A stretch of DNA of 64,000 nucleotides from Anaerolineae bacterium (GCA_023384415.1 JAHDWJ010000014.1:43943-107942), one strand, 5' to 3'. Counted from the stretch's first letter, positions 19,748-61,515 are shown. The notes: a model not told the origin generated them from the sequence alone. Numbers and translations are program-made.

Positions 19748-19799
19748 TTCGGGAACAGTGAGAAACTCGTGGGAACTGACCGCCAACAGAACTGATTTT

Positions 19800-20516
19800 A
19801 TGGCTCAATCACAAATTGAATGGACAGAATCTACCTGGAATCCGGTGACGGGCTGTACGAAGATTAGCCCAGGGTGCAAACATTGTTACGCTGAGCGGAT
19901 GGCGTTTCGTTTGCAGGCGATGGGGCAGCCGAATTATGCTAATGGGTTTACGGTGACGCTGCATGAACAGATGTTAACGCGGCCGCTCGAATGGAAAAAA
20001 CCGCAAACTATCTTTGTCAACTCCATGAGTGACCTTTTTCACCAAGTCGTTCCTCTGGAATTTATCCAAAGGGTGTTTGCCGTGATGAGGCTGGCCCACT
20101 GGCATCAGTTCCAGGTACTTACCAAGCGTTCGGAACGGCTATTAGAACTGAGTTCGCAGTTAGCCTGGATGGATCATATCTGGATGGGCGTTAGCGTGGA
20201 AAGCGAAAAATATAGTTTCCGTATTGACCATTTGCGCCAAACTGGCGCCGTGGTGAAGTTTTTGTCATTGGAGCCTTTGTTGGGGCCATTGCCCAATCTG
20301 GATTTGACTGGGATAAATTGGGTTATTGTTGGGGGAGAGTCTGGGCCAGGAGCGCGGCCGCTTAAACGAGAATGGGTTACAGATATTCGTGACCAGTGTC
20401 AGCAGGCCAGGGTGCCGTTTTTCTTTAAGCAGTGGGGTGGGGTGCGTAAAAAACAGCGCGGCCGCGAACTCGATGGCCGCACTTATGATGAAATGCCAGT
20501 GGGAGCAGCTGCATGA
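19800..20516 (+). CDS. DUF5131 (phage Gp37/Gp68 family) three-Cys-motif protein
   Basis: [35 protein letters not shown]..., VSVE, GGESG, FFFKQWG. Confidence 0.75.
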
Positions 20517-21939: not shown

Positions 21940-22491
21940 TTAAGCCGCGACCAGTTCTTCTTCAGGTTGGGCCACTTTTTGCAGTTGCAAATCAATTTCA
22001 ATCGTGATTTTGTCACTGACCAGCCAGCCACCCGCTTCCAGGGCCACATTCCAGGTCAGCCCCCAATCTTTGCGGTTAATGGTCGTGGCGGCAGAGAAGG
22101 CGGCGACGGTGGCTCCCCAGGGATTTTTAACCGTACCCCCATATTCTACATCCAAAGCAACCTCTTTGGTAACGTCACGAATGGTCAAATCACCGATGAG
22201 GCGGCCGCTGTTGGCGTCATCCTGCTCTACTCGTTTGCTCTTGAACCGGATCACCGGGTATTTCTCCACATCAAAGAAATCTCCGGAGCGTAGATGACGA
22301 TCCCGCTGCTCTTCTTTGCTGTTGATGCTGGCGGCCTGAATGGTGATGTCAACGGTGGTATTGGTTGGGTTTTCTTCGTCATAATTGACAACCCCGGCCC
22401 AATCTTCAAAGCGGCCGCGTACTTTGGTGATCATCATGTGGCGAGCCGTAAACGTCAGTTGTGAATGGGAATAATCAATGTTCCAGGTCAT
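21940..22491 (-). CDS. YceI family polyisoprenoid-binding protein
   Basis: WNIDYSHSQLTFTARHMMITKVRGRF, and GDLTIRDVTKEVALDV. AAGGAG lies upstream of the ATG. Confidence 0.85.
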   Translation of the reverse strand: MTWNIDYSHSQLTFTARHMMITKVRGRFEDWAGVVNYDEENPTNTTVDITIQAASINSKEEQRDRHLRSGDFFDVEKYPVIRFKSKRVEQDDANSGRLIGDLTIRDVTKEVALDVEYGGTVKNPWGATVAAFSAATTINRKDWGLTWNVALEAGGWLVSDKITIEIDLQLQKVAQPEEELVAA

Positions 22492-22570
22492 GGTTGTTTT
22501 CTCCTTGAATTTAATTGGCTACTGTGTCATAGCTTCATTGCTATCTATTTGCACAAGCCTGAATTTGTAA

Positions 22571-22620
22571 GTGGACTTAAGTCCGTATATCTGCTATAAT
22601 ATTAGCGGACTTGAGTCCGT
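22571..22620. promoter_or_regulatory. Two 16-nt palindromic operator-like sites flanking a TATAAT box (yceI/tetR divergent region)
   Basis: GTGGACTTAAGTCCGT (22571-22586) and GCGGACTTGAGTCCGT (22605-22620), with TATAAT at 22595-22600. Confidence 0.6.
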
Positions 22621-22707
22621 TTGTCAAGCGATTGCCCAAATTGGCCGCGAAAGCTGTTAATCTCATTCATTTTGTGCTAACCTGGAGAGCGTAAATTAAA
22701 AACCCAT

Positions 22708-22774
22708 CCGCAGATTAAGCCAGATTTTGGGGAATCAGATAGAAGAAATCGGCCATAATCAACGAAATCTGCGG
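22708..22774. repeat. Family-2 hairpin element, copy R3 (67 bp)
   Basis: CCGCAGATT...AAATCTGCGG, a 9-bp terminal inverted repeat. 48/67 identity to R4 by hand alignment. Confidence 0.7.
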
Positions 22775-22786
22775 CTAGAATCAACG

Positions 22787-23425
22787 ATGGCCTGGACTGA
22801 TATGATTGAACTAAACTTACCCATCAACGAACACAAAGGAGAGCGAGCGGACGCGGCCGCGAACCGTCTGCTGCTCCTGGAGACGGCAGAACGCCTTTTT
22901 GCCCAATATGGGGTAGCCGCCGTTAATATGGCCGACATTGCCGAGGCGGCCGGGGTGGGCAAGGGGACGCTGTACCGCCGCTTCCCCAACAAAGCCACTC
23001 TCTGCCTGGCCCTTATGGATACGCAAATGCGGACGTTCCAGGATGAGATTCTGGCCCGCCTGCGGCAGATGCAGATGCAAAGAGTGCCTTACTTGCAACA
23101 GCTAGGCCATTTCTTAGAGGCATTTGTCCTCTTCGCCGATATTCATTTGCCTTTGCTGTGTGAAGTGCAGCGGGAAGGGTGGCTAGGGGATGAAGGAGTG
23201 GATCGCCCGTATATCTGGCGCTATTTGACGGTGAAAGGGCTACTGGACGCGGCCGCACGGCAGCAAGAAATCTCCCCTGATCTGGACACCGCCTACCTGG
23301 CCGAAGCGTTATTGGCCCCCTTGCACCCGGCCTTATTCCATTTCCAACGCAGCCAACGGGGATATGAGCTAGACCGCATCAGCACCGGCCTGCGTAGTCT
23401 GGTAGAGAGTTTGGGGAATAGTTGA
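22787..23425 (+). CDS. TetR/AcrR family transcriptional regulator
   Basis: The HTH LLETAERLFAQYGVAAVNMADIAEAAGVGKGTLYRRFPNK. ATG 22787 chosen; the upstream ORF codons fall inside repeat R3. Confidence 0.85.
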   Translation: MAWTDMIELNLPINEHKGERADAAANRLLLLETAERLFAQYGVAAVNMADIAEAAGVGKGTLYRRFPNKATLCLALMDTQMRTFQDEILARLRQMQMQRVPYLQQLGHFLEAFVLFADIHLPLLCEVQREGWLGDEGVDRPYIWRYLTVKGLLDAAARQQEISPDLDTAYLAEALLAPLHPALFHFQRSQRGYELDRISTGLRSLVESLGNS

Positions 23426-23428
23426 AAA

Positions 23429-24121
23429 TTAAGAGCGCAGCCGGCTGACGATATAATCATGGGCTTCGGCTGGGGAATCAGTTAGAAAAAAGAGGTCTAA
23501 ATCTTCAGGGGAGATTTTGCCCTCAGCCAGCATCGTTGACCGCACCCACGCTACCATCCCCCCCCAATAAGCCGTATCAAACAAAACAAGGGGGAAATTG
23601 CTCATTTTGCCCGTCTGAATGAGCGTCAACGTTTCAAAAAACTCATCTATGGTGCCAAACCCGCCAGGGAAAATAATCGAAGCCTGGGCATATTTCAACA
23701 ACATCACCTTACGCACAAAAAAATAGTGGAACTCAATCGCCAGATCAACATGGGGGTTAATATGCTGCTCAAACGGCAGTTCGATATTCAGGCCAATAGA
23801 TAACGCCCCCACCTGCCGCGCCCCTTCGTTGCCTGCCTGCATGATGCCGGGGCCACCCCCGGTAATGATGGCATAGCCTGATTGGCCTAAAAGCCGGGCT
23901 GTCTCTACCGTCTGTTGATATTGCCGATCTTCTGGCCTCGTCCGTGCCGAACCAAAAATAGTCACCGCCGGACCAACCTCCGCCAGTTCATCAAACCCTT
24001 GCACAAATTCACTCATCACCCGCAAAACTCGCCAGGGGTCGCTGCTGCGGAAAGGGGTTTTGGCCTGGGATGGGGCTTGTAAGATATGTTCGTCGTGGGT
24101 GTGGGAGCGGTGTAGTTTCAT
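23429..24121 (-). CDS. LOG family / TIGR00730 Rossmann-fold nucleotide-binding protein
   Basis: AIITGGGPGIMQAGNEGA and PGGFGTIDEFFETLTLIQTGK motifs. Confidence 0.85.
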   Translation of the reverse strand: MKLHRSHTHDEHILQAPSQAKTPFRSSDPWRVLRVMSEFVQGFDELAEVGPAVTIFGSARTRPEDRQYQQTVETARLLGQSGYAIITGGGPGIMQAGNEGARQVGALSIGLNIELPFEQHINPHVDLAIEFHYFFVRKVMLLKYAQASIIFPGGFGTIDEFFETLTLIQTGKMSNFPLVLFDTAYWGGMVAWVRSTMLAEGKISPEDLDLFFLTDSPAEAHDYIVSRLRS

Positions 24122-24123
24122 GG

Positions 24124-24160
24124 GAAATTGAGAGACTGGAGATTGGAGACTCAGGAGATC
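24124..24160. repeat. Heptamer repeat block (D-type) forming the LOG gene leader
   Basis: Plus strand GAGAGACTGGAGATTGGAGACTCAGGAGATC. Gene sense: GATCTCC TGAGTCTCC AATCTCC AGTCTCT CAATTTCCC ATG. Confidence 0.75.
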
Positions 24161-24180
24161 AAAACCAGGAAAAAATTTAT

Positions 24181-24247
24181 CTGCCGATTAACACAGATTT
24201 TAGGGATTAGCCTGAGAAAAATCGGCGTTAATCGGCGAAATCTACGG
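24181..24247. repeat. Family-2 hairpin element, copy R4 (67 bp)
   Basis: CTGCCGATTAACACAGATTTTAGGGATTAGCC...AATCGGCGAAATCTACGG. Same length as R3. Confidence 0.7.
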
Positions 24248-24323
24248 ATGAAAACCAGCTTTTGCTATACAGAGATTAGAGATTGGTGACCGGGCGGTTG
24301 GCAAACCCCTCATATCACATACC

Positions 24324-27059
24324 TTATTCATACCGTAAAACAATGAGTGGTTTTTCCTGGGCGGCCCCGTAGGCGGTGATGAGAGTGGCGGCCAGGGAGA
24401 TGATGACTGATAAGATGACCAGGCCAATCAGGGTGAGCAGGGGGAAGCTGCTTAAATTAGATGAGACGATCCCCAAAGCCAGAATCGCGGCCGCGCCAAT
24501 GCCCGTTCCTATCACCCCACCTAACAATCCTACCAGCCCATTTTCTAACAACAACAGGCGCAGCACATCGCGGGATTGTAGCCCAATCGCCTTCATAATC
24601 CCAATCTGACGACGGCGTTCCAGGGTAGCCAGGGAGACGGTATTGGCGATGATAACGGTGCTGGCAAACAGAGCCAACACGGCTACCACCAGGGGCAGAG
24701 CTGTCAACTGTCGGATGATCCGGGCGGTTAGCTCTTGCAGTTGGCTGATTTCCAGGACAAAAATCCCCCGCTCATTAGCAAACGCCCGACTCACCTCACT
24801 CACCCGCTCTTTGTCCACATCAGCAATGATGGGTGAGGAGATCGGCTCATAGCCAGGCGGAAGGCTGTTATCACTGATGATGGCCGGGCTTTCATTGCTG
24901 CCAAAGCTGAAGTTGACCGCCCCAGAGGTCAGCGACCGCGTCCACAACCCGGCCACCGTTAATTCCATTTCCGAGCCATCCGTATACTGCACCGTCAGCA
25001 CATCCCCCGGCTGCAAATCCAGCCACTCCACCACACTTGTTTTTTCCAGCAGCAGCTGCCGATTAGAGGCCGGGGTGATGTCTTGACCGGCAACAATATT
25101 GTAGGTTCGGTCAGTATCCGGGTGGCTGGCTAATTGCAGTTCAAGGGGATTGACCAGGCTTTGGATTTGGAACTCGTACAAGTCAAAGCGGCCTTGCCCG
25201 GTGTTGATTTCACTGTCTGGGGCGCGGCCGCTGCGACTAGAGGCGGCCGCGGCTTCCAGAGCGCGTTCACGGGCTTCAGCCGTTAGCCGGGTCATATCTC
25301 TGTCACCATTAATGGCTACAATCTGGCTCTCATACACCACATCCTGCTGAATCGAGTTAACTCCTTCTAACCCCTGTAATACCTCTTGCGCCCGTTCACT
25401 ATCGGCCAATGTTTGGGGCACGATGAGGACATTCCCCCCAATCGCCTGGGCAAAACTGACCTCAATGACGTTGATGACGCTTTGGGTGAGCAACAAAATG
25501 AGGCTGAGAGAAAACATGCCAATCACCAAAGCCAGCAAGGTGCTGGCGGTACGGCTGGCATGGGTGCCAATGGCTCGTTGGGCCAGCCGTATGGTGACGA
25601 AGCCAAATGAGGGTAAAACGCTCATAATGATGACGATGACCCAAAAGAAGAGTAGGGCTAACCCCAACACCACCAACGCCCCATAAGCGATACCAAACCC
25701 AACCCAGCCATTGCCGACGATGAGCGTAACCATCAGGCCAATGATGCCAGTCATAATCAAGACAACAAAAATGGAAATGAGGCGGCCGGCCTGGGGCAAA
25801 GCGGCGTCGGTGGGGTTCAGGACAACCTGCGGCCGCACCCGACCTGCAGCAATGGTGGGCAAAAAGCCAAAAACCAGGGTGACAACGGAGCCGGTGATCA
25901 GCCCCATCAAAATCGCTTCCGGGTAGAGGGTAAAGGCTAACTGCTGCGCTAACACCCGCTCCGCCACTGATTGCAGCCCGGAGACCATGCCCAACCCTAA
26001 CAGGATGCCTAAAATACTGCCAAACAACCCCATCAGGGCCGCTTCGATGAGGAACATGAGGGTAATTTGATTGGCCTGCACTCCCACCGTTTTTAAGACA
26101 CCGATTTCCAGGGTGCGCCGCCCAACGACGACGTTCATGGTGTTGGCGATGCCGATACCGCCGATGAGCAGGGAGACCAGCCCCATGGTCGTAATTAGCT
26201 TGGTCAGGTTTTCGCTGAGGCTTTCGTTTTGCTCCCGCAAATCGGCGGTAGTGGTGACTGGTATGCCGGTAAAAGTTTCACTGAATGATTCCCCTGCGGC
26301 CGCGCTGTCTGCACCCTCTGGCAGCTTAAAATAAACCGTATCGGCCTGCACATTGAGCCGTGCGGCCGCCATGTCATAACGCAAATAGACATACGGGAAC
26401 AGCACCGCATTCAGATCACGCAGGCTGGCCTCAGCCCCATCATCCACAATCCCCGTGACCACATACACATCTGGACCAACCAGCCGCAGCTCTGTGCCAA
26501 TCTCCGCCCCTAACAGCCGGGCCAGCCGTTCCGCAATGACAATATCATTCTCCCCTCGGAGCGTCGTCGCCAGGGTTCCCCCGGCCGGGGCCACAAAGGT
26601 AATTTCCGCATAATACGGATATTTCTCCGGCTCAATAAAAAAGGCCAGAATACTCTCCGGTTGGCTGTCATTTTGATTAAGCCGGATCCGATCCGTGTCA
26701 CTGTTACGTGAGGCAACTGTCATCTCATACCCATTCTCATCTGCCCAGGCGGCCATACGTTCCAGCCCTACCTGGCTAAAACTGGGTGAGATAAACATTG
26801 AGCTGCCCCGGTTAATCAATTCCGGGTCAAACTCCCCAACCCCCATAATTGCGGTTACCGGCACAGAAGCAGACAAGTCTCCCCGGTTATCTTGTTGCAG
26901 GTTTTGGGTCAGGCTGTCCCCAATCATCAGCCCCAGGGTGCGTAAAGAGACAATCGCCGCCACTCCGACAGCAATACAAAACAGGACAAAAATCGTCCGC
27001 TGCCGGTTGCGGTTCATATTCGCCATTGCCTGACGGAAAAAGAAAGGTAAATGTTTCAT
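24324..27059 (-). CDS. ABC transporter permease with two FtsX/MacB-type domains
   Basis: About 911 aa from MKHLPFFFRQAMANMNRNRQRT. There are two 4-TM FtsX-like modules separated by large extracytoplasmic regions. It lies downstream of a MacB/LolD-type ATPase gene. Confidence 0.85.
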   Translation of the reverse strand: MKHLPFFFRQAMANMNRNRQRTIFVLFCIAVGVAAIVSLRTLGLMIGDSLTQNLQQDNRGDLSASVPVTAIMGVGEFDPELINRGSSMFISPSFSQVGLERMAAWADENGYEMTVASRNSDTDRIRLNQNDSQPESILAFFIEPEKYPYYAEITFVAPAGGTLATTLRGENDIVIAERLARLLGAEIGTELRLVGPDVYVVTGIVDDGAEASLRDLNAVLFPYVYLRYDMAAARLNVQADTVYFKLPEGADSAAAGESFSETFTGIPVTTTADLREQNESLSENLTKLITTMGLVSLLIGGIGIANTMNVVVGRRTLEIGVLKTVGVQANQITLMFLIEAALMGLFGSILGILLGLGMVSGLQSVAERVLAQQLAFTLYPEAILMGLITGSVVTLVFGFLPTIAAGRVRPQVVLNPTDAALPQAGRLISIFVVLIMTGIIGLMVTLIVGNGWVGFGIAYGALVVLGLALLFFWVIVIIMSVLPSFGFVTIRLAQRAIGTHASRTASTLLALVIGMFSLSLILLLTQSVINVIEVSFAQAIGGNVLIVPQTLADSERAQEVLQGLEGVNSIQQDVVYESQIVAINGDRDMTRLTAEARERALEAAAASSRSGRAPDSEINTGQGRFDLYEFQIQSLVNPLELQLASHPDTDRTYNIVAGQDITPASNRQLLLEKTSVVEWLDLQPGDVLTVQYTDGSEMELTVAGLWTRSLTSGAVNFSFGSNESPAIISDNSLPPGYEPISSPIIADVDKERVSEVSRAFANERGIFVLEISQLQELTARIIRQLTALPLVVAVLALFASTVIIANTVSLATLERRRQIGIMKAIGLQSRDVLRLLLLENGLVGLLGGVIGTGIGAAAILALGIVSSNLSSFPLLTLIGLVILSVIISLAATLITAYGAAQEKPLIVLRYE

Positions 27060-52323: not shown

Positions 52324-54267
52324 TCAGGGTGATTCCAGGCGATCTAACTCATATAGGTTCCACAATTCTGAGGGTTGGGTGGTGTCGGGCTGGAAATGGC
52401 GTACTGATGGGTGGGTCACGGCCAGGCGCAGATAGTGGAAGAGAGGCAGGGAGGGGATGTCTTGGGCGAACAAGTGGAATGTTTCCTGGATCGCGGCCGC
52501 ATATGGGTCACTGCCCCAATATTGCTGCCGGGCCTGGGTGCAAGCCGTATCAAAAGCGGGGTTGCTCCAACCGGTCTGGTTATTTCCCTGCCAGTTGTTA
52601 TTTTCATCGGGAATGGCGGCGGTGGTATAAAAAACACAGGCGGGGGTCAAATCGGTAATCCAGGGGAAGATTGCCAAATCAAAGCGGCGGCCAAAAAGTG
52701 GCCCCTGAGGGGCAAACCATTCGGCGGGGGAGTGGGGGGTAAGTTGTACATCCAGGCCACACTTGGCCAGGTTGCTGACGAGAAGTTCGCCTAACCGCTG
52801 CTGGGTGGGATTGTTGCGGCTAATGCCCAGGGTAACGCGAAAGGTGCGGCCGCTGCGTGGATGTTGACGGAACCCGTCCCCGTTGTAATCACGATACCCT
52901 AACTCTTCTAAAATGGCGTTTGCGGCCGCGACATCATATGGCCATTGGGCTATATCATCCGGGATAAGGGGATGATCTGGGGGGACAAAGAGGTGGGATA
53001 CCTGCCCCAGCCCATACAGGATAACCTCGGCCATGGTTGTCCGGTCGGTACAGTGGGCGATGGCCTGGCGTATTTGGGATGATTCAAACCAGTCGGGCCG
53101 TTTGCTGGCATAATCGGCCGCGGAGTTGATACCAAAATCGAGATGTTCAAAGACCATTGAGGGGGTGAAATAGGGAATCAGGAGTTCGCGTGCGGCCGCG
53201 TCCTGGATTGTAGATGCCTGGGGCAAATCCAACCCGTCTTGTGTACCGATATGACATTCTCCGGCCAAAAGCAGGGCCAGAAGCTGATCACTGCTGCCCA
53301 CAAAACGAAAAGTCAATTGATCCAGACGGGGGAACCCTTCGTCCCGGCGATAATAATGTTCATTACGGATCAATTTGATCTGCTGGCCGGGTAACCATTC
53401 CGTAATGACAAACGGGCCGCTGCTGAGAGGTGTGCGCGTTGTTTCTGGGGCCAGGAGCAAGTCGGCGGCAGTCAGGCCGGCTAGTTGATGGGCCGGTAGG
53501 GGCATCCACACATTGGTAAAGTAAAGTGGGTCTAACCAGCCGGGCAGGCCACGCCATTCGACGGTGTGATCATTCAAAGCCAGATAGCTGGCCGTGTAGC
53601 TGATTTTGCGCTTATCCGCCGGTGTGTTTGGGTCGCGGGCGACCTTATAACTAAAGACAGAATCCTGAGCCGTTACTGGCTGTCCGTCTGACCAGACGAG
53701 AGGGCGGAAGGTGAATTGCACCTGCATCTGCAACAGGGGAACGGCCTCGCCGTTAAAAATAATTTCCTGACCGTTGGCGTGGCGCAGGCGGGTACCGGTC
53801 TGTACGGTAACAATCCGGTTCTGGCTGTCCACGGCTAAGGCTCCTGCACTGACAATCACCGGCACCAGCACGGCATCCCCATCAGCCAGGCTGGGTAATT
53901 TTTGTAATCCCTGGGGCTGGTAGCTGTACTGACGGCTGGTGAATGGGTTTTCGTAGATGGCGTGGAGAATGGCGGTTTGGCTGTGGGCGGCCGCGCCAAA
54001 AGGCGGGGCATCATACCAGTACAAACTTTGGGGTTCGGTGACGAGGCAGACGGTGAGCTGTTTGGGAGCGGGGGTCCCGCTTACGGCATCGGGTGAGGGG
54101 GTGATGGTGACGGGCACCGTCACCCGTTCAGTAACCAGGCGGGTGATTTCGGTAGGCGGCCGCGTTACCATGACGGTAACGATTTCGGTAGACAATTCTT
54201 GGGTACAGGCTGTTAACCCGGTGAGAAGCAGGAACAGCCAAAGAAAAGAGGAATGTTTTGCCAGCAT
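52324..54267 (-). CDS. ABC transporter substrate-binding lipoprotein (family 5, peptide/nickel type)
   Basis: Lipobox LLLTGLTAC. About 640 aa with a family-5 SBP-like layout. Confidence 0.75.
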   Translation of the reverse strand: MLAKHSSFLWLFLLLTGLTACTQELSTEIVTVMVTRPPTEITRLVTERVTVPVTITPSPDAVSGTPAPKQLTVCLVTEPQSLYWYDAPPFGAAAHSQTAILHAIYENPFTSRQYSYQPQGLQKLPSLADGDAVLVPVIVSAGALAVDSQNRIVTVQTGTRLRHANGQEIIFNGEAVPLLQMQVQFTFRPLVWSDGQPVTAQDSVFSYKVARDPNTPADKRKISYTASYLALNDHTVEWRGLPGWLDPLYFTNVWMPLPAHQLAGLTAADLLLAPETTRTPLSSGPFVITEWLPGQQIKLIRNEHYYRRDEGFPRLDQLTFRFVGSSDQLLALLLAGECHIGTQDGLDLPQASTIQDAAARELLIPYFTPSMVFEHLDFGINSAADYASKRPDWFESSQIRQAIAHCTDRTTMAEVILYGLGQVSHLFVPPDHPLIPDDIAQWPYDVAAANAILEELGYRDYNGDGFRQHPRSGRTFRVTLGISRNNPTQQRLGELLVSNLAKCGLDVQLTPHSPAEWFAPQGPLFGRRFDLAIFPWITDLTPACVFYTTAAIPDENNNWQGNNQTGWSNPAFDTACTQARQQYWGSDPYAAAIQETFHLFAQDIPSLPLFHYLRLAVTHPSVRHFQPDTTQPSELWNLYELDRLESP

Positions 54268-54396
54268 GGGGCCAATTGTAACCCCAATGCCCTATGATTT
54301 TCCATTGATTAAGGATGGTTCACTCAATCTCAGTAGATCCCAAATCCGGGGTTTATCCCCAGAGTTGGGGTAAGCAAAGCCGTAGGTGCGGTCTGC

Positions 54397-56799
54397 TCAT
54401 AACAACTGGGGCAAGAGTAAGAGGAAGAGGGTGATGAGCAGACAAAAAAGTCCCGTCGCCAGGAGAACCCATAATGGCATGATCGGGGGGATTTCGATTT
54501 CTCCGACTTTGATTTGGGTGTCGCCGTGACTCGCTTTGATCTGAACGCGGAACGGGATGGTTTGAGGTTTTCCCCACAGCGGCCGCGTACTGGTCCAAAT
54601 AGTCAGGGGTAAACTACCCTGTTGGCCAGGAGCCAGCCGCAGCCGCTCAGCTTGACCAGTGAATTGGAGCGGGGTTTCGTTGTCACTGGTGCGGGCTAAT
54701 AGGGCGAAGGTGGTTTCGATGTTGCCCAGGTTATGAATCTGAACGACGCAGGGCTGCTGCGGCCGCACCTGTTCCGGGGTTAATGTGGCTGTAAAAGAGA
54801 TATTCTCCTTAATCTGTACATAACCAGTGGCTACCGTAACAATATCTGGGGCCGTCTCTGGGGAAACACGAACGATAAAGGTGCGCTGCCCTGGCTCAAC
54901 GGCCCGTTCCAGGGTGTTTAGCAAATTGATTTGCAGCACATCTTGTTCCCCCGCCTCTAAAACGAGCCGGTTTTCGGGAATGCTCACCCAGGTTGGAGGC
55001 AGCCCTTCTACCTGGAGATAAAACCGCTCGGCCATTTGCCCCTGATTGGTGATTAGCACCTGGATAAACGATTCCTGCCCTGGGGTAATTTCTACCATAG
55101 TAGGGATAAGGGTGAGATTTACCAGCGGTACAGGCAGGGGAGAAACTGGTGTCATGGGTTCGATGAGAGGAAGGAGTGAGGGCGAAAAATCAGGAACAGA
55201 AGGCTCGCTTTCCGGCATCCATCCTTCGTCACCAGTTGTCACAAGAAGTGTAGAGGGGTGGCCGAAGAGGGGAGATTCACTTTCCGTTATCCGTCCTTCG
55301 TCACCTGTCCTCACAAGGAGTGAGGATGGAGGATCAAAAAGGGTAGACTCACGTTCGGTTATCTGTCCTTCGTCACCTGGCCTTATAAGGAGTGAGGATG
55401 GCGGACCGAAGTGGGAAGGCTCACTTTCCGTCATCGTTCCTTCGTCTTTCGTCGCCAACCCAAAAGCCAGGGGGAATACCGCCCGAAATCGCTCGGCAGC
55501 GGAAATGTCTTGCTCTTGTGATGGGGGTGGGGGTAAAGGCGGGATTGACAAGGGCTGTTGATTGGGGTCAATGGGCTGCCAGCGCAAGGTGAATCCCCCT
55601 AATTGGGCTGGTTCATTGGCGGCCCAGTGATAAGGTTGACGCGGCCGCAGTCGTTCTTGACTCATCCATACCCCATTGGTGCTGTCCAGGTCTAACAAAT
55701 GCCAGCCAGTGCCGAGCCACTCAATGCGAGCATGGTAGCGAGATACGCCCTGTTCGGGCAGCGGTAAATCATTTTTCTGGCTGCGGCCAATCGTCAATAT
55801 GGGCTTATCCAAAGAGATACGCTGTTCTGGGGATCCGGTGTGGCTAATGATCAATTCGGCTGGGGAAGGGGCAACAGGTGGGGCAGACATTTTATGGCTG
55901 GTCAGCCATTCTTGAACGGATTCGCCCCCTGTTGTATCTTTACTTTTACTGACCTCGCGCAAGGCGGCCAGGAGATGGCTGGCTGATTGTAAACGATGTC
56001 CTGGCTGTTTGGCTAACCCTTTTTGCAAAATAGCAGTTACTTTTGGGGAAAGCTGAGGGCGTAGGTTTGCAGGGGGTAGGGGAACTACCTGCTGATGGTG
56101 GTAGCGGGCTTCATCCAGAGAATGGGTGATGAAAGGGGGTTGCCCGGTGATGAGATGGTATAAATTGGCGGCCAGGTTATACAGGTCAGTAGCGGGTGAT
56201 GGGGTGAACCCATCGGTTTGTTCTGGGGCGGCATAGGGCCAGAGGGAGGGAAAAGGAGTGAGTAGATGCGGGTGGCGGCCGGCCAGCAAAGACCAGACAC
56301 CGCTGTCCAGAACGGTTAATTTCCAGGGGGTATCGTCGTTATCGGAGAGGGGGATGAGCCACAAGTTGACCGGGTGGATGGCCCCGTGAATTTCGTTTTG
56401 GTGGTGGAGGTAATCGAGCGCGGCCGCGGCCTGCTGTCCCAAGGTGAGTGTATCAGCCAGGGTGATATGGGAATGGCGTGAGGCCAGCCGTTGCAGCAGA
56501 ACCGCCAGGGAGAGGCCGTCATAGGCCGGGCGCACCCAGTAGCCGGTTTGTTGGTGCCAGCCATAGGCCAGGATGGGGGCCAGGTGAGGATGATGGAGAG
56601 TCGCGGCCGCATGCCCCCACTGCCGGAATCGTTTTTCGTCTGGAGACAGATGGGGATGGAGCAGCTTGATAATGACTGTCTGGTCGGAGAGTAGGTTGCG
56701 GCCGCGGAAAACCGCTGTCACCCCACCCTCACCCAACAATTCCTGTAGCTGGTACTCGCCCAACTGTTCTCCGCTCCAATCTAACCAATTCGTGCTCAT
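54397..56799 (-). CDS. Predicted pseudokinase (degenerate Ser/Thr kinase fold) with FHA domain, 24-aa tandem repeats, Ig-like modules and a C-terminal TM anchor
   Basis: The catalytic loop reads IHGAIHPVNL instead of HRDLKPxN (Asp->Ala, Lys->His). DSG replaces DFG. The VIIK lysine and AAPE are retained. FHA: LTIGRSQKNDLPLPEQGVSRYHARIEW...DLDSTNGVW. Confidence 0.75.
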   Translation of the reverse strand: MSTNWLDWSGEQLGEYQLQELLGEGGVTAVFRGRNLLSDQTVIIKLLHPHLSPDEKRFRQWGHAAATLHHPHLAPILAYGWHQQTGYWVRPAYDGLSLAVLLQRLASRHSHITLADTLTLGQQAAAALDYLHHQNEIHGAIHPVNLWLIPLSDNDDTPWKLTVLDSGVWSLLAGRHPHLLTPFPSLWPYAAPEQTDGFTPSPATDLYNLAANLYHLITGQPPFITHSLDEARYHHQQVVPLPPANLRPQLSPKVTAILQKGLAKQPGHRLQSASHLLAALREVSKSKDTTGGESVQEWLTSHKMSAPPVAPSPAELIISHTGSPEQRISLDKPILTIGRSQKNDLPLPEQGVSRYHARIEWLGTGWHLLDLDSTNGVWMSQERLRPRQPYHWAANEPAQLGGFTLRWQPIDPNQQPLSIPPLPPPPSQEQDISAAERFRAVFPLAFGLATKDEGTMTESEPSHFGPPSSLLIRPGDEGQITERESTLFDPPSSLLVRTGDEGRITESESPLFGHPSTLLVTTGDEGWMPESEPSVPDFSPSLLPLIEPMTPVSPLPVPLVNLTLIPTMVEITPGQESFIQVLITNQGQMAERFYLQVEGLPPTWVSIPENRLVLEAGEQDVLQINLLNTLERAVEPGQRTFIVRVSPETAPDIVTVATGYVQIKENISFTATLTPEQVRPQQPCVVQIHNLGNIETTFALLARTSDNETPLQFTGQAERLRLAPGQQGSLPLTIWTSTRPLWGKPQTIPFRVQIKASHGDTQIKVGEIEIPPIMPLWVLLATGLFCLLITLFLLLLPQLL
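55204..55456. repeat. 72-bp tandem repeat, about 3.3 copies, inside the pseudokinase gene
   Basis: Encodes ESEPSHFGPPSSLLIRPGDEGQIT / ERESTLFDPPSSLLVRTGDEGRIT / ESESPLFGHPSTLLVTTGDEGWMP / ESEPS... Confidence 0.85.
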
Positions 56800-57004
56800 G
56801 CGCTTTTGCCTTAAAGAGGTTTTGGCTCCTTATGAATTCAAGAGGTAAATACGGTGCCTCAATTTAGAAAGGCCCCGGCTCATTCGTAGTGAACCTTTTT
56901 GTTTACATCCATGGGCATATTAACCATACACCCATACTGTTTCAGTTTACGGGCAAATGGGGGGGAAGCAACGAGTTTTCGCGTAAATTTAACGACCCGT
57001 TTGC

Positions 57005-57056
57005 GGGGATTTAACTGGGGATTGGGGGGATTCAGAGATTCAGAGATTGGAGACTG
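57005..57056. repeat. Heptamer/octamer repeat block (D-type)
   Basis: GGGGATTTAACTGGGGATTGGGGGGATTCAGAGATTCAGAGATTGGAGACTG. Confidence 0.75.
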
Positions 57057-57161
57057 CAAGAACTACCCGACGCGGTGACAAAGCGAGGGGGCGATAGGGG
57101 GAAATAAAAGCGCAAATTGCGCTCTTTGGCAATATAAGGGGAGTGGGAGAGTGATATGGGT

Positions 57162-57194
57162 CAACTGCTTACTGCCCACTGCGGCTAACTGCCA
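57162..57194. repeat. Heptamer repeat block (E-type) overlapping the stop codon of the FHA-gpI gene
   Basis: CAACTGC TTACTGC CCACTGC GGCTAACTGCC. The reverse complement shares GGCAGTTAGCCG with 18039-18050. Confidence 0.75.
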
Positions 57195-58195
57195 AACGAC
57201 AGCACATAACTGGTATGGGCAGGTTTGTAGGTGTTGATCAGGTTTTCAATCAACTCCCGTTTCACCTGTTTTTCAGACAGGGGGATTTTGATGGCAAAGG
57301 TGAAATCATCCAGCTTTTCATCTCGATCATCAATCTCAGGTTGGACGCCGGTGTATATCTCTATGACACGGCTGACGGCCCATCGGGTGCCGCGTCGGGC
57401 ATATATCTGGGCCGCTTCACGGAGCATTTCCCGTTTTTTCTGATCATCCCAGGTGGAGTCAAAGGGAAGATTAAACCAGCTTTCTAGCCAGGGCATAAAT
57501 TCTGGGGGGGTGGTTTTGGGGTCGAGGAACAGGTCAAAATTGTCTACATTCCATTCGATGGGAGCCATGATGGCTTCTAACATGCCCAAGAGCCGTCCCA
57601 TGAAATCGTTTTGGTAGATGCCAGGCAAAAATTGTAAATACCGGTCGCTGTGTAAGGCCAGACCGGGTGGGGGGGTGGTGTGATCTGGGGGCTGCGGCCG
57701 CACTGGAGGTTGTGGGGGTAAGGATGCTGGCGGTTCATCGGCTGGGGGCTGCGCTTCCTGGGTTGGTTTGCGCGGCGGAGGTTTCCGGGCCGGTTCTGCT
57801 TTGGCGGGGGGTTCTTCTTTGCTGGCAGGTTTCGCGGCCGCGGGCGGTTCCACTTTGACTGGGGCCGGTTCAGGGGCGGCCACGACAATTTCCGTTTGCT
57901 GGTAAGTAAGCTTAAATGGCCCTATCTGTATGGTGGCTTGATCCGCTAAAGGGTAAGGCACATTAGCGGCCAGCCGTTCATTATTGAGCGTCGTTCCGTT
58001 GGCACTGCCCAAATCAATGAGGGTACAGCCCCGGTCGCTGCATTCGATTCGGGCATGTTGGCGGGAAATAAGCGGATCGGGAAGATGGATTTCGGTGCCT
58101 GCTTGCCGGCCAATCGTAGAGGTACCAGGGGGGATGATAAGGCTGCGTGTGCCTTCGGGTCCTTCAATGGTCAAACGAAAGATAAATTCAGCCAC
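57185..58195 (-). CDS. FHA domain fused to a phage-tail P2 gpI-like (TIGR02242-type) baseplate domain
   Basis: FHA: STIGRQAGTEIHLPDPLISRQHARIEC...DLGSANGTTLN. A Pro-rich linker follows. C-terminal YLQFLPGIYQNDFMGRLLGMLEAIMAPIEWNVDNFDLFLDPKTTPPEFMPWLESWFNLPFDSTWDDQKKREMLREAAQIYARRGTRWAV matches the tail-protein-I domain pattern from memory. GTG start with AGGAG upstream. Confidence 0.7.
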   Translation of the reverse strand: MAEFIFRLTIEGPEGTRSLIIPPGTSTIGRQAGTEIHLPDPLISRQHARIECSDRGCTLIDLGSANGTTLNNERLAANVPYPLADQATIQIGPFKLTYQQTEIVVAAPEPAPVKVEPPAAAKPASKEEPPAKAEPARKPPPRKPTQEAQPPADEPPASLPPQPPVRPQPPDHTTPPPGLALHSDRYLQFLPGIYQNDFMGRLLGMLEAIMAPIEWNVDNFDLFLDPKTTPPEFMPWLESWFNLPFDSTWDDQKKREMLREAAQIYARRGTRWAVSRVIEIYTGVQPEIDDRDEKLDDFTFAIKIPLSEKQVKRELIENLINTYKPAHTSYVLSFGS

Positions 58196-58210
58196 GGGTA
58201 TCTCCTGGAA

Positions 58211-58245
58211 GGATGAATTAAGAATGATGAATTATGAAGGATAAG
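58211..58245. repeat. Heptamer repeat block (GATGAAT type)
   Basis: GGATGAAT TAAGAAT GATGAAT TATGAAG GATAAG. Shares GATGAATTATGA with 60212-60223. Confidence 0.7.
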
Positions 58246-58301
58246 CCAGGGTGAATCTTATGTACAGACTTGCCCACTCGCAAATTCGCCAACATTGTAA
58301 C

Positions 58302-59093
58302 TCAAAATTCCCCTTTGCGTAAGGCTTGAATATACGGTTCATAGGCGATGGCTTGTTGGTCATTCTGGTTCAAGAGGCGGTAATAATCTTGGGCGATCTG
58401 AGCCTGCTGCTCGCGAGTATATTTGTGGTAAGGTTTGCCCTCTCGTTGGGCCTGTTTAAGCCCCTGGCTGCCCCCATATCGGTATGCTTCGTGTCCCAAT
58501 GTCCATTGAGCATGGAGGGCTTCGCCGATGTAGATAGAGCCAAGCTGCTCGTATTGATAGATGTGGGTGATTTCATGGACGAGTAAGGAAAGATCGCTGC
58601 GGCTACCTTCAGGCAGGTGAACGGTGTGCCAAAGAGCAAAAGCCCGCCCTTTGTTGGCCCGGAAAATGAAGCGCAAAACGCCCCCTTCGGCTACCCGAAT
58701 TTCTCCATAACGTAAAGCGGTTGGGCCTAAGATGGTCGCGGCCGCGTGCATTTCGGTCACGGTGAGAGGAGTAGTGGGTATGGCCAGGTGCATCACGAAT
58801 TGTACCAGTTCTGGCCCGCCGATGAGGTCAAACAGGTAACAGCCCAGGTGATGCAGGCCAAAAGTAACGCGGCCGCGCCAGGTACGTCCCCAGCCGGCTG
58901 GTTTCGGTTGGAACAGATCAGCCAATAAACGGCCCAGTCCGGTTACACCATAAACCAGCAGTCTGAGCAGGCGACCCAGCCGCACCGGTAAATCTCGCAC
59001 CAGGTTGATCGGCCACGCGGCCGCGTCTCGCAGCCGCTCTGCCAGCCACCCGGTCACCAACATTAAAACCAGGCCTATCTTAACCATAACCAC
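58302..59093 (-). CDS. DUF4157-like HExxH metallopeptidase-fold protein with hydrophobic N-terminus
   Basis: GRAFALWHTVHLPEGSRSDLSLLVHEITHIYQYEQLG resembles the DUF4157 core (...AFT.G..I.F....LLAHELTHVVQ). The start could be GTG 59093 or ATG 59087. Confidence 0.6.
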   Translation of the reverse strand: MVMVKIGLVLMLVTGWLAERLRDAAAWPINLVRDLPVRLGRLLRLLVYGVTGLGRLLADLFQPKPAGWGRTWRGRVTFGLHHLGCYLFDLIGGPELVQFVMHLAIPTTPLTVTEMHAAATILGPTALRYGEIRVAEGGVLRFIFRANKGRAFALWHTVHLPEGSRSDLSLLVHEITHIYQYEQLGSIYIGEALHAQWTLGHEAYRYGGSQGLKQAQREGKPYHKYTREQQAQIAQDYYRLLNQNDQQAIAYEPYIQALRKGEF

Positions 59094-59214
59094 CCTTACC
59101 GTATCTTCTCAATAAGTTGGGGCGAACCTTCGGAAGGTTTGGGAAATGGACAAGCTCTTGAGTCAAACCTTCCGAAGGGTACATGTTTTACTGTGATGTT
59201 ACCCCTTACCGTAT
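59093..59214. repeat. Family-1 hairpin element, copy D (59101-59193, inverted), with flanking 12-nt direct repeats
   Basis: CCCTTACCGTAT occurs at 59093-59104 and 59203-59214. The core is 84/93 identical to copy B in reverse complement. Confidence 0.8.
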
Positions 59215-59976
59215 ATTAAAGCAGCCTCGTGTTGAAGCGATTACCGTCCGCTGACTCTGGTTCATATAAGCCACCTGCCAATGGTAATCATTGGTCGTGT
59301 CCTGGTAAAAAGTTGAAACCGGCACCCGCCAGACCCATAAATTTTGCGCCGGAATAGAGAGAACATCATTATTTAGCCCTCCCAAACTGGTCAAATTGGT
59401 TGCCCCCCTGGGGCCAACCCGCACTTCTAGATAAAACCCATTGGCCGTATCTACTCGTTGCGTCCAGGTCCATTGGAACTCAATAGTGCTGCCTCGGTCA
59501 AAGGTGCTGATGTTGTTCTGGCAGTTAGTGTGATTAGCCAGGCGGGGGGCGGGAATGCCGGTTCCTGCTGTGGCAGTGGGGGATGGGGTATCGGTAGGCA
59601 GCAGGGTGGGCGATGGTTCACTCCCGGGAGTGGCCGTAATCGGGGCTTTGACCGTAGGTGTAGCTGTGGGTGGTAGTTCGGTGGGGGTAGAGGTGAATAT
59701 GGGCAGAGTGGCCGGGGCGGTCGTGGCTGTGTCCGTAGCCGGGATTGGCGAGGGGGTTGATGTTGTTTCGGCAGCCACCGTAAGTTCTGAGGTAATGTCG
59801 GCGACGGTTTCGGGGGTGAGGGATAGGGTAATGTCGCTGGTGGGAGGTTCACCAGTGCCCGTACTTTGGGTTTGGGGGTAGACCAGAAAAAAAGCGGCCG
59901 CAGCCAGAACAAGCAAACACAGGCATCCCAAAAACAAGATACCAATGATCACAAAAATAGAGCGTTTATCGTTCAT
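59206..59976 (-). CDS. Membrane-anchored T/P-rich protein with an unknown ~110-aa C-terminal domain
   Basis: TM segment IFVIIGILFLGCLCLLVLAAAAFFLV, then a Thr/Pro-rich spacer, then a Trp-rich C-terminal domain. Confidence 0.55.
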   Translation of the reverse strand: MNDKRSIFVIIGILFLGCLCLLVLAAAAFFLVYPQTQSTGTGEPPTSDITLSLTPETVADITSELTVAAETTSTPSPIPATDTATTAPATLPIFTSTPTELPPTATPTVKAPITATPGSEPSPTLLPTDTPSPTATAGTGIPAPRLANHTNCQNNISTFDRGSTIEFQWTWTQRVDTANGFYLEVRVGPRGATNLTSLGGLNNDVLSIPAQNLWVWRVPVSTFYQDTTNDYHWQVAYMNQSQRTVIASTRGCFNIR

Positions 59977-60204
59977 ACTATTACCCCCACGATTTGATTA
60001 TGGCACGTCTTTAGGGTTTTGCGGGGTTTTGTCTGATGGGGAATGCCTCTCTGTCACATTGTATGACCCCCACAAACGCCGCAAGAGCCATGGTGGCATT
60101 TTCCCACTTGTTAGCAGCCTGTATTTTTACGTAAAAACGCAGAGACGCAAATGTTGCCTGCCCTTTTCTCTGGTCAAACCTGCATAACCCGTTTAGAATC
60201 CGGT

Positions 60205-60303
60205 TATGAGGGATGAATTATGAGGGATGAAAGGGTGAGGGAACTCGAAACTCGAAACTAGAAACTAGAAACTCGGAACTAGAAACTAGAAACTCGGAAC
60301 TAA
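60205..60303 (+). repeat. Composite heptamer array (B units, then nine A units) in the muramidase gene leader
   Basis: TATGAGGGATGAATTATGAGGGATGAAAGGGTGAGG, then GAACTCG AAACTCG AAACTAG AAACTAG AAACTCG GAACTAG AAACTAG AAACTCG GAACTAA. AAGGAG and ATG 60319 follow. Confidence 0.9.
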
Positions 60304-60318
60304 ACAAGGAGTCATCTT

Positions 60319-61515
60319 ATGAGTGAGCGAACTGGTCAGACTATAGCCGTGCCGGTTTATATGCGGAGTGGTCCAGGGATTCAACACCCCGCGGCCGCGA
60401 CCCTACCCCCTGTTACCCCTTTCACTGTCTTAATGGAGATGGCTCCCTGGCTCCATATCCATTGTGACCTGGGCGAAGGGTATTTGCACCAAAATTTTGC
60501 CACTTTAGACCCCATTGAAGATTGGGCCGTCTCTTTTGCCCTGGAGATTGTCCGCACCGGCAAGGCACGTAACTTTCTCAACTTACGCTCCGGCCCTGGC
60601 ACCCACTTTGATCGCATTGTTGTCCTGGCTCCAGAGACACCGCTGGAGATTCAATCTCAAGAAGGGGTGTGGCTTAAAGTATCGGCTGAGGGGGTTGTGG
60701 GGTATGTTCACAGCGATTTTGTCGTCTTAGACCCACTGCCTACACCAACAATCCCGCCCGGCACCAACCCACCCCCACAGCTGCCCGTGGACATTCGCCC
60801 CGGAGAGGAGAATTTGCAGCCCCCAGCCCACGAGATGCTGACAGCCCCTGTTGGCAGTGATACCACAACCCGCAGCGTGGCCCGAATCTGGAACCGGTTT
60901 GGTGGTCTGTTTCAGGAGCTGTCACAGCAGCTGCGGATTGATCCTGGGGTGGCGGTGGCTGTTTTTCTCATCGAATCCGGGGGCGAAGGGTTTGGGTCTG
61001 ATGGCCGGTTGAAGATTCGTTTTGAGAACCATGTGTTCCGCAACTATTGGGGCAAACTCAATCCTGACCGGTTCGCCCAACATTTTCGCCATGATTCCCC
61101 CCGTACCTGGGAGAATCATTTCTGGCGGCCGCATCCCGATGGCGAATGGTTATCTTTTCATGGTAACCAGGCGAAAGAGTGGGAGGTATTTAACTTTGCC
61201 CGCACTCTGGACGACACGGCGGCCAAAATGTGTATTAGTATGGGGGGGCCACAAATTATGGGGTTCAATCATGCTACCACTGGCTTTGAGTCGGTGCATC
61301 AGATGTTTGATGCTTTTGCTCAGGGCAACCGGGGGCAGATTATCGGCTTTTTCCGCTTTGTGCAGGGGGGGACACCCAACTCCCAGCGGTTGGTGGCTCT
61401 GCAAACACTTGATTTTGAGAAATTCGCCAGCCTATACAACGGCCCCGGTCAGGCTGCCCGCTATGCCGGTCTGATCCAGGGGGCGTATGAGCGGTTCCGG
61501 CAGTTGAGGGGGTAA
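60319..61515 (+). CDS. Two SH3b-like domains plus N-acetylmuramidase (DUF3380-type) domain; endolysin-like
   Basis: Two SH3b-like modules: MRSGPGIQHP...GEGYLHQNF, and LNLRSGPGTHFDRIVVL...VWLKVSAEGVVGYVHSDFV. C-terminal AVFLIESGGEGF...IRFENHVF...FASLYNGPGQAARYAGLI. No signal peptide is evident. Confidence 0.7.
   Translation: MSERTGQTIAVPVYMRSGPGIQHPAAATLPPVTPFTVLMEMAPWLHIHCDLGEGYLHQNFATLDPIEDWAVSFALEIVRTGKARNFLNLRSGPGTHFDRIVVLAPETPLEIQSQEGVWLKVSAEGVVGYVHSDFVVLDPLPTPTIPPGTNPPPQLPVDIRPGEENLQPPAHEMLTAPVGSDTTTRSVARIWNRFGGLFQELSQQLRIDPGVAVAVFLIESGGEGFGSDGRLKIRFENHVFRNYWGKLNPDRFAQHFRHDSPRTWENHFWRPHPDGEWLSFHGNQAKEWEVFNFARTLDDTAAKMCISMGGPQIMGFNHATTGFESVHQMFDAFAQGNRGQIIGFFRFVQGGTPNSQRLVALQTLDFEKFASLYNGPGQAARYAGLIQGAYERFRQLRG

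Follow-up and report, generated by a model that had tools for sequence, protein, structure and literature searches.

The DNA considered here is a 64,000-nucleotide stretch (hereafter the window) from an Anaerolineae bacterium (GCA_023384415.1 JAHDWJ010000014.1:43943-107942). The source is a 6.1-Mb metagenome-assembled genome (MAG) of 155 contigs, and the window corresponds to C60:43943-107942. Six-frame open reading frames (ORFs) and a Pfam scan of the window define a co-oriented block of four genes on the minus strand, reading from 59976 to 54397. In order, these genes encode a small membrane protein, a DUF4157-like protein, a fusion of an FHA domain to a Cis12-type baseplate wedge protein of contractile injection systems (CIS), and a pseudokinase with FHA, immunoglobulin (Ig)-like and transmembrane (TM) segments. 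The block is probably the displaced 3' end of a CIS cluster found on another contig, C70, and would include the wedge partner, cis12, that this cluster is missing. The features are as follows.

57185..58195 (-): FHA::Cis12 gene, 336 aa; P2 gpI/Cis12-type baseplate wedge protein with an N-terminal FHA domain
57887..58195 (-): predicted FHA domain, residues 1-103, from phosphothreonine (pThr)-contact residues and Foldseek
57650..57886 (-): Pro/Ala-rich disordered linker, residues 104-182; predicted local distance difference test (pLDDT) score 46-66
57188..57649 (-): gpI/Cis12 core domain, residues 183-336, from the alignment to PDB 9GTP Cis12
54397..56799 (-): tail-anchored pseudokinase, 800 aa; degenerate protein kinase (PK) domain, FHA, repeat array, two Ig-like domains (together the C-terminal domain, Cdom) and C-terminal TM helix
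55199..55446 (-): 72-bp tandem repeat, 3.4 copies, from Tandem Repeats Finder and translation
58302..59093 (-): DUF4157-like HExxH protein, 263 aa; HEITH at 58563-58577
59206..59976 (-): small membrane protein, 256 aa (h256); N-terminal TM helix, Pro/Thr-rich linker and ~100-aa C-terminal domain
60319..61515 (+): SH3b-muramidase, 398 aa; two SH3_3 domains and PF11860 in Pfam

The original prediction, made from the DNA sequence, described 57185-58195 as an FHA domain fused to a tail protein I domain, and profile searches bear this out. The protein matches the Pfam families FHA (PF00498; E 5.4e-18, residues 27-92) and Tail_P2_I (PF09684; E 1e-17, 64.8 bits against a gathering cut-off of 20.6, residues 205-326), and a weaker Phage_Mu_Gp48 match is seen for the gpI domain. 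In a genome-wide search, the Tail_P2_I score was 67.2 bits. A profile of 39 homologues retrieves Cis12 of the Streptomyces coelicolor CIS (PDB 9GTP chain E) with an E of 2.5e-22 and the R2-pyocin protein PA0619 with an E of 1e-5, and the core of the fusion aligns to residues 22-182 of the former (161 of 190 residues). The AlphaFold2 (AF2) model, with a pLDDT of 84, consists of an FHA sandwich, a disordered Pro-rich linker of ~80 residues and a helical/beta gpI core. When this model was used in Foldseek, 9GTP ranked first with a target-normalised TM-score of 0.60, followed by dozens of FHA domains; the FHA domain itself matched solved FHA domains with TM-scores of 0.85-0.92. The pThr-contact residues G29, R30, S44, R45, H47 and N66 are invariant in the 39 homologues, and every family-invariant residue is retained in the window protein. 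These profiles and models identify the gpI domain as a Cis12/P2-gpI wedge protein and the FHA domain as a predicted phosphothreonine reader. The family comprises more than 342 homologue clusters, all with the FHA::Tail_P2_I architecture and essentially all from Chloroflexota. Its database name is 'phage tail protein I', and the window copy is its sole member in this genome.

No homologue of sheath, tube, spike, gp25 or Baseplate_J is present among the window proteins, as had been noted at the outset. A search of the whole genome for extracellular CIS (eCIS) core genes, proposed with the original prediction, found two CIS clusters, at C70:138033-154998 and C128:~44.5-76 kb. The suspicion that the window genes belong to a CIS encoded elsewhere thus stands, but the adaptor, effector or release role proposed for them does not, as the fusion is predicted to be the structural wedge protein of the Cis12 position in that CIS lineage. 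The C70 cluster encodes, in order, an AAA+ ATPase, eCIS_core, Pvc16, sheath, tube, a 118-aa protein, tube, a 1226-aa protein, LysM tube protein, spike, PAAR-like protein, gp25 and Baseplate_J667, and is followed by an effector-like gene of 471 aa and then by unrelated genes. Its gp19 tube domain is recognised with an E of 2e-36. All of its reading frames are intact in blastp and tblastn maps, and its proteins are 38-63% identical, protein by protein, to those of clusters that bear FHA::cis12. The only core part missing is cis12, because Tail_P2_I occurs at just two places in the genome, the window on C60 and the C128 cluster. The 471-aa gene (C70:136501-137916) was considered as a hidden cis12 and rejected; its product has no Pfam match and is effector-like, with an N-terminal 'GNxxVQR' motif. 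The C128 eCIS (loci L003 and L004) encodes two eCIS_core proteins, Pvc16, sheath, gp19 tube, LysM tube protein, spike and gp25, as well as a pair of long Baseplate_J proteins, 1159 and 792 aa in length, and its own NHL-repeat::Tail_P2_I protein of 741 aa.

Comparison with other genomes indicates where this gene normally resides. Co-occurrence was scored in 250 genomes of the class, for which neighbourhoods were fetched, and synteny in 80 Chloroflexota FHA::cis12 loci, one genome per species. In the fetched neighbourhoods, the fusion directly follows a Baseplate_J of ~660 aa and precedes a kinase-FHA gene. Baseplate_J (Cis11) lies upstream on the same strand in 57 of the 80 loci. The gap is less than 200 bp in 43 of these, and in the other 14 the two genes are separated by 2-7 kb of inserted genes, including in five cases a DUF4157-like gene. 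The next feature downstream of the fusion is a kinase in 51 of 74 loci, and 15 loci beyond these are arranged in the same way. The remaining contexts resemble a type VII secretion system (T7SS) in 9/80 loci or are of other kinds in 14/80, the latter mostly cut by contig ends. Moreover, the gp19 tube is found in all 15 genomes with an FHA-fused match, compared with 66 of 250 in the background (Fisher p = 6e-10), and in 38/39 of the gpI-family matches (p = 9e-26), so the co-occurrence of the fusion with CIS genes is supported. The T7SS marker YukD, in contrast, is not associated with FHA-fused matches (1/15, p = 0.84). The cis12 of this CIS lineage has an FHA domain at its N-terminus and normally stands directly after cis11 and directly before a receptor-type Ser/Thr kinase composed of PK, FHA, two Ig-like domains, a TM helix and an ectodomain. 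The fusion is therefore no orphan as a family, although the window copy has no Baseplate_J near it on its own contig, where its orthologues mostly adjoin one. All FHA::cis12 loci are from Chloroflexota except one, L071 (50% identity); its bin bears the label Zixiibacteriota, but the contig is probably mis-binned.

The genomes with the closest fusions suggest how the window block came to be separated. In G253, whose fusion is the second closest (65% identity), the CIS and the module share one contig. The order there runs from the tube genes to spike, PAAR-like and gp25, a Baseplate_J 84% identical to that of C70, three effector-like genes, an active PK-FHA, a small gene, an h256-like gene, a DUF4157-like gene, FHA::cis12 and the pseudokinase; one of the effector-like genes is 68% identical to the 471-aa gene of C70. 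Because G253 joins a C70-type cluster to the four genes of the window, the window block appears to be the displaced 3' end of C70. In Candidatus Trichofilum aggregatum (G252; fusion 70% identical), the CIS and the module are split between separate contigs, as in this genome. Most structural proteins of its CIS are 79-96% identical to those of C70, and its module contig shares the flank of SBP_bac_5, AMP-binding and CTP-synthase genes with the window. With the module ~70% and the CIS ~90% identical to Ca. Trichofilum, a chimeric bin was considered. It was rejected because the housekeeping flanks of both contigs are 81-100% identical between this genome and G252, so that the split is not a binning artefact and both contigs belong to one lineage. 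In G252:C50, Baseplate_J (18180-20181, L145) and an effector-like gene (21942-23343, L146) are each split into two ORFs, which is why the Pfam search for Baseplate_J in that genome was empty; real frameshifts or long-read assembly errors are possible.

Selection on the detached genes was estimated as the ratio of nonsynonymous to synonymous substitution rates (dN/dS) against the Ca. Trichofilum orthologues, and the values below are rough because dS is saturated.

FHA::cis12, whole: 0.09
gpI core: ~0.05
FHA domain: 0.12
DUF4157-like gene: 0.11
Pseudokinase: 0.20
CIS structural genes: 0.02-0.07

All of the module values are far below 1 and, judged by these ratios, the detached genes are under purifying selection. 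Within the fusion, conservation relative to the Ca. Trichofilum orthologue is highest in the gpI core (82% identity) and lowest in the linker (56%).

The second FHA protein of the block, the 800-aa product of 54397-56799, had been predicted to possess an inactive kinase domain, and its motifs agree. In Pfam it matches FHA and, weakly, Pkinase, at 60 bits compared with 155-164 bits for active relatives. The catalytic Asp is lost, with HGAIHPVN in place of HRDxKPxN and DSG in place of DFG, and for this reason the label pseudokinase is correct; the VAIK lysine and the G-loop are retained. More than 40 CIS-linked kinase homologues keep HRDxKPxN and D[FL]G, and only the kinases of the window, L062 and L063 read HG[AS]xHPxN and DSx. 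The single TM helix of the pseudokinase lies at its extreme C-terminus (residues 778-796) with no ectodomain after it, and this clade's kinase is the only one to have lost both the catalytic Asp and the ectodomain. The AF2 model of the Cdom (pLDDT 92) contains two Ig-like sandwiches and the TM helix, and a fold search with it returned generic Ig/ASH/MSP-like folds and none specific to CIS. Between the FHA domain and the Cdom, the 72-bp repeat encodes Thr-containing units of ~24 aa with the pattern DEGxITExE..F..PSSLLV..G.

The canonical partner kinase is laid out as a kinase domain (residues 1-290), an FHA domain (~350-430), two Ig-like domains (~480-685), one TM helix and an ectodomain of 350-650 aa, and the motifs HRDxKPxN and D[FL]G are kept in nearly all of these proteins. 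An active kinase of this type, 77% identical to the active PK-FHA of G253, is encoded in the same genome as the window at C70:89454-92483, ~46 kb from the C70 cluster. Since G253 keeps the pseudokinase module inside its CIS locus, the loss of kinase motifs predates the detachment or is independent of it. Where cis12 lacks the FHA domain (L055, L057 and L058), the next gene encodes an Ig-array protein of the same type with neither kinase nor FHA. The partner that stays constant is thus the Ig module, while the FHA domain and the kinase are present or absent as a pair. Degenerate kinases of a second type, in which HQDxRPxV and DFA replace HRD and DFG, occur directly after FHA::cis12 and before a canonical kinase in seven other species (L076, L082, L089, L093, L111, L112 and L131), from which it follows that kinase/pseudokinase pairs arose independently more than once.

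Several known systems offer points of comparison. The wedge of the S. coelicolor CIS is pyocin-like, with Cis11 present twice and Cis12 once (Casu et al. 2025, PMC12237407; PDB 9GTP, with six Cis12 copies). This cytoplasmic CIS is without tail fibres, and its particle requires the membrane protein CisA in order to reach the membrane (PMC12237407). Its Cis12 is, like the core of the fusion, a short P2-gpI-type wedge protein (~160-190 aa) that matches in both sequence and fold. The make-up of the cluster is also the same, with AAA+ ATPase, Cis16 cap, sheath, two tubes, LysM tube initiator, spike, gp25 and Cis11, and neither it nor the C70-type cluster has a recognisable tail-fibre gene. However, the S. 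coelicolor Cis12 has no FHA domain and its cluster no kinase, whereas the Cis12 core here comes after an FHA domain and a long linker. Moreover, CisA is found there and a receptor Ser/Thr kinase is the conserved neighbour here, where the gene is in addition unlinked from its cluster. To our knowledge, CisA is the only known membrane-docking factor of cytoplasmic CIS, and its contact with the baseplate is unproven. The gpI protein of phage P2, Gp48 of phage Mu and PA0619 (Tri2) of the R2 pyocin belong to the same Tail_P2_I family and share the size of the core and the position after gpJ/Baseplate_J, but these are plain wedge proteins that bind tail fibres, and none has a phosphopeptide-binding domain. 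Afp12 and Pvc12 of the antifeeding prophage (AFP), the Photorhabdus virulence cassette (PVC) and AlgoCIS likewise occupy the same wedge position with a Tail_P2_I-related core. They differ in being large, in forming wedges of one Cis11 and one Cis12 and in having tail fibres attached, while the fusion is minimal like the pyocin and Streptomyces proteins.

A functional parallel is offered by type VI secretion systems (T6SS), in which the kinase PpkA, the phosphatase PppA and Fha1/TagH control where and when the machine assembles (e.g., PMC5995506, PMC12607579). As in this threonine phosphorylation pathway, the genes of a contractile machine are accompanied here by those for an FHA protein and for a Hanks-type kinase that sits in the membrane and has an extracytoplasmic domain. 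In the T6SS, however, the FHA domain belongs to Fha, an accessory protein in its own right, and is absent from the wedge partner TssG, whereas here it is fused to the wedge protein; in addition, the kinase itself bears an FHA domain and two Ig domains, the host belongs to the Chloroflexota and the cluster is of the eCIS type. The mechanism proposed below would resemble both PpkA-Fha and CisA while being a member of neither, the T6SS serving as a functional analogy only.

The mechanism that we infer is as follows. On the model of the S. coelicolor CIS and the R2 pyocin, each of the six wedges would be assembled from one FHA::Cis12 and two copies of Cis11. Six FHA domains, on flexible linkers of ~80 residues at the rim of the baseplate, could then bind phosphothreonine on a membrane kinase/pseudokinase pair, made up of the window pseudokinase and the active orthologue at C70:89454-92483. 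Such binding would hold the cytoplasmic particle at the membrane, or permit its assembly or firing, with an outside signal sensed by the active kinase as the trigger. The pseudokinase, which keeps its FHA domain, Ig pair and membrane anchor, could act as a docking scaffold or a substrate, and the juxtamembrane Ig pair may contact the wedge. Phospho-regulation of the CIS is a reasonable supposition. It is possible, although we hold this only tentatively, that Chloroflexota wired a Streptomyces-like cytoplasmic CIS to receptor Ser/Thr-kinase signalling through the FHA-wedge fusion and a membrane kinase/pseudokinase pair, and in so doing invented independently the threonine-phosphorylation switch of the T6SS.

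A number of points weigh against assigning the block to C70 and against its regulation by phosphorylation. The module proteins are 61-74% identical to those of Ca. Trichofilum, compared with 79-96% for most CIS structural proteins, and this faster divergence could reflect a loosened or changed role; the dN/dS values set against it are themselves rough. The kinase that adjoins FHA::cis12 is dead in this clade, and phospho-signalling would therefore need a paralogue. Because the genome is a MAG in 155 contigs, linkage between contigs is invisible, and another cis12 could in principle sit in unassembled sequence. Finally, both the presence of the window protein in the C70 baseplate and the binding of FHA to the kinase are predictions from sequence.

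One rival reading is that FHA::gpI and the pseudokinase, once detached, became a domesticated module with a signalling or scaffold role independent of CIS, while C70 is non-functional or uses another wedge protein. The location of the block among housekeeping genes on another contig would fit such a role, as would the loss of the catalytic Asp and the ectodomain in this clade only and the faster divergence of the module than of the CIS structural proteins. Domestication would not, however, explain why the gpI core is conserved better than the rest of the fusion (82% identity, dN/dS ~0.05) with its family-invariant residues all kept, nor why the C70 cluster is intact yet without cis12, and G253 has the same pseudokinase module within a CIS locus. 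We regard it as unlikely, and the remnant envisaged in the original prediction is better described as a translocated C70 3' end under purifying selection.

It is still less probable that the fusion serves one of the other secretion loci. An exchange with the NHL::Tail_P2_I protein, in which the fusion would be an alternative wedge of the C128 eCIS, might be suggested by the Tail_P2_I domain common to both and by the DUF4157-like neighbour, a 44% paralogue of a C128 eCIS_core protein. Yet a gpI protein is already encoded within C128, whose baseplate is of another kind, with two long Baseplate_J proteins, the gpI domains of the window and C128 are ~33-36% identical over short stretches only, and the partner of the fusion across the 57 CIS-embedded loci (43 adjacent) is the ~660-aa Baseplate_J of the C70 type; this exchange is very improbable. 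Regulation of a T7SS-like (EssC/WXG100/YukD) system instead of a CIS is equally hard to credit. In 9/80 species the fusion does lie directly upstream of a BTAD-FHA-kinase-kinase-YukD::FHA-WXG100-EssC series, and the C-terminal domain of h256 is a paralogue of the ectodomain of a T7SS-like-locus kinase. Nevertheless, in all three such genomes that were searched (G251, G254 and G255), the same strand carries a C70-type CIS cluster 15-19 kb upstream, with effector-like genes between, so these cases are really super-loci of CIS and T7SS-like genes. These clusters, together with the lack of a genome-level YukD association, led to rejection of the fusion as primarily a part of T7SS-like loci, and the gpI fold is that of a baseplate part. 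The reading of the block as the displaced end of the C70 cluster is accordingly retained as the probable one.

Although the parts of this system are known, no description of the fusion or of its conserved kinase partner was found in the searchable literature, which yielded nothing linking FHA domains or kinases to eCIS-type baseplates and nothing on FHA-fused Cis12 or on Chloroflexota CIS. The translocation itself is specific to the window and of minor interest, and the fusion matters mainly to CIS specialists. It bears on how cytoplasmic CIS without fibres reach the membrane and time their firing. A wedge protein with a built-in phosphothreonine reader, present in more than 342 clusters and 80 species and usually encoded beside a receptor kinase, presents a testable hypothesis. 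If correct, a handshake between kinase and FHA at the baseplate rim would be a docking or trigger device for cytoplasmic CIS, and the joining of CIS to an EssC/WXG100 locus in several lineages would hint at co-regulated secretion. For annotation, Chloroflexota genes named 'phage tail protein I' are CIS parts and not prophage remnants, and CIS clusters seemingly without cis12 may encode it elsewhere in the genome.

The other genes of the block are less well defined. The HExxH protein at 58302-59093 was described at first as DUF4157-like. Its HExxH motif is present (H173-E-I-T-H177, HEITH), and over 275 aa it is 44% identical to the C-terminal half (residues 241-508) of a true eCIS_core protein at C128:72143-73672, in the C128 eCIS locus. 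However, the match to eCIS_core/DUF4157 (PF13699; E 4.4e-4, 20.8 bits) falls below the gathering cut-off of 22 bits, and the predicted DUF4157 assignment is thus a weak, sub-threshold one. Orthologues are found directly upstream of FHA::cis12 in nine species, in five of which (L064, L065, L071, L075 and L107) they lie between Baseplate_J and the fusion. The small membrane protein h256, with a TM helix at residues 7-25, has no Pfam match. At its C-terminus, the domain of ~100 aa shares 44% identity with a C-terminal kinase ectodomain in the T7SS-like locus (C26:44939-45229) and also matches kinases in L007-L010. The position of its gene upstream of the DUF4157-like gene is conserved in L062, L063 and G253.

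On C60, the block is followed downstream by an SBP_bac_5 gene and an AMP-binding enzyme gene and is preceded, on the plus strand, by the SH3b-muramidase gene (60319-61515) and a PUA-methyltransferase gene. The domains ascribed to the muramidase (two SH3_3 and PF11860, E 1.4e-38) are present, and no hydrophobic segment or signal peptide is found in it, as was said originally; its inclusion in the module fails, since no homologue occurs in the 146 related loci that were fetched and no paralogue elsewhere in the genome. For the same reason, its candidacy as a CIS release factor was dropped. Without a conserved linkage to the block genes, it is a mere neighbour outside the system, and may represent a solitary endolysin-like gene or an enzyme that remodels the cell wall. 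A scan of 54000-60500 for promoters and terminators gave counts no higher than in shuffled controls. The divergent intergenic region immediately upstream of the muramidase gene contains the 7-bp unit AACTAGA repeated 8.7 times in tandem at 60242-60302 (alternatively 21 bp x 2.9), and a 14-bp repeat occurs twice at 60204-60231.

Some further observations concern the CIS and T7SS-like loci more widely. Effector-like proteins encoded downstream of Baseplate_J have a common N-terminal motif, 'LQ..GN..VQR', at residues ~35-85, followed by unrelated C-terminal parts, one of which is an Aspzincin_M35 domain. Carriers of the motif include C70:136501-137916, G253 (L142) 22593-26637, h378, h478 and h1292 of L009, and M35_1059 and h1373 of L007, and it may be a loading signal for CIS cargo. 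A protein of 118-121 aa adjoins tube genes at C70:147960-148316, at C128:65788-66153 and in many other loci. It is 45-63% identical across the class, lies between the two tube genes in C70-type clusters, and has a faint zinc-ribbon as its sole Pfam match. A BTAD regulator gene lies directly upstream of the C128 eCIS cluster. Super-loci with FHA::cis12 at the junction are L066, L067, L070, L072, L078, L084, L087, L090 and L098, and also L053/L054; their T7SS-like genes encode BTAD, an FHA protein, two kinases, YukD::FHA, WXG100 and an EssC-like FtsK ATPase. In the present genome, the T7SS-like set stands alone at C26:35000-48500. Elsewhere in the window, positions 11258-12052 contain a further Hanks-type kinase gene, 41% identical to the kinases of T7SS-like loci, and dozens of kinases akin to it are encoded in the genome.

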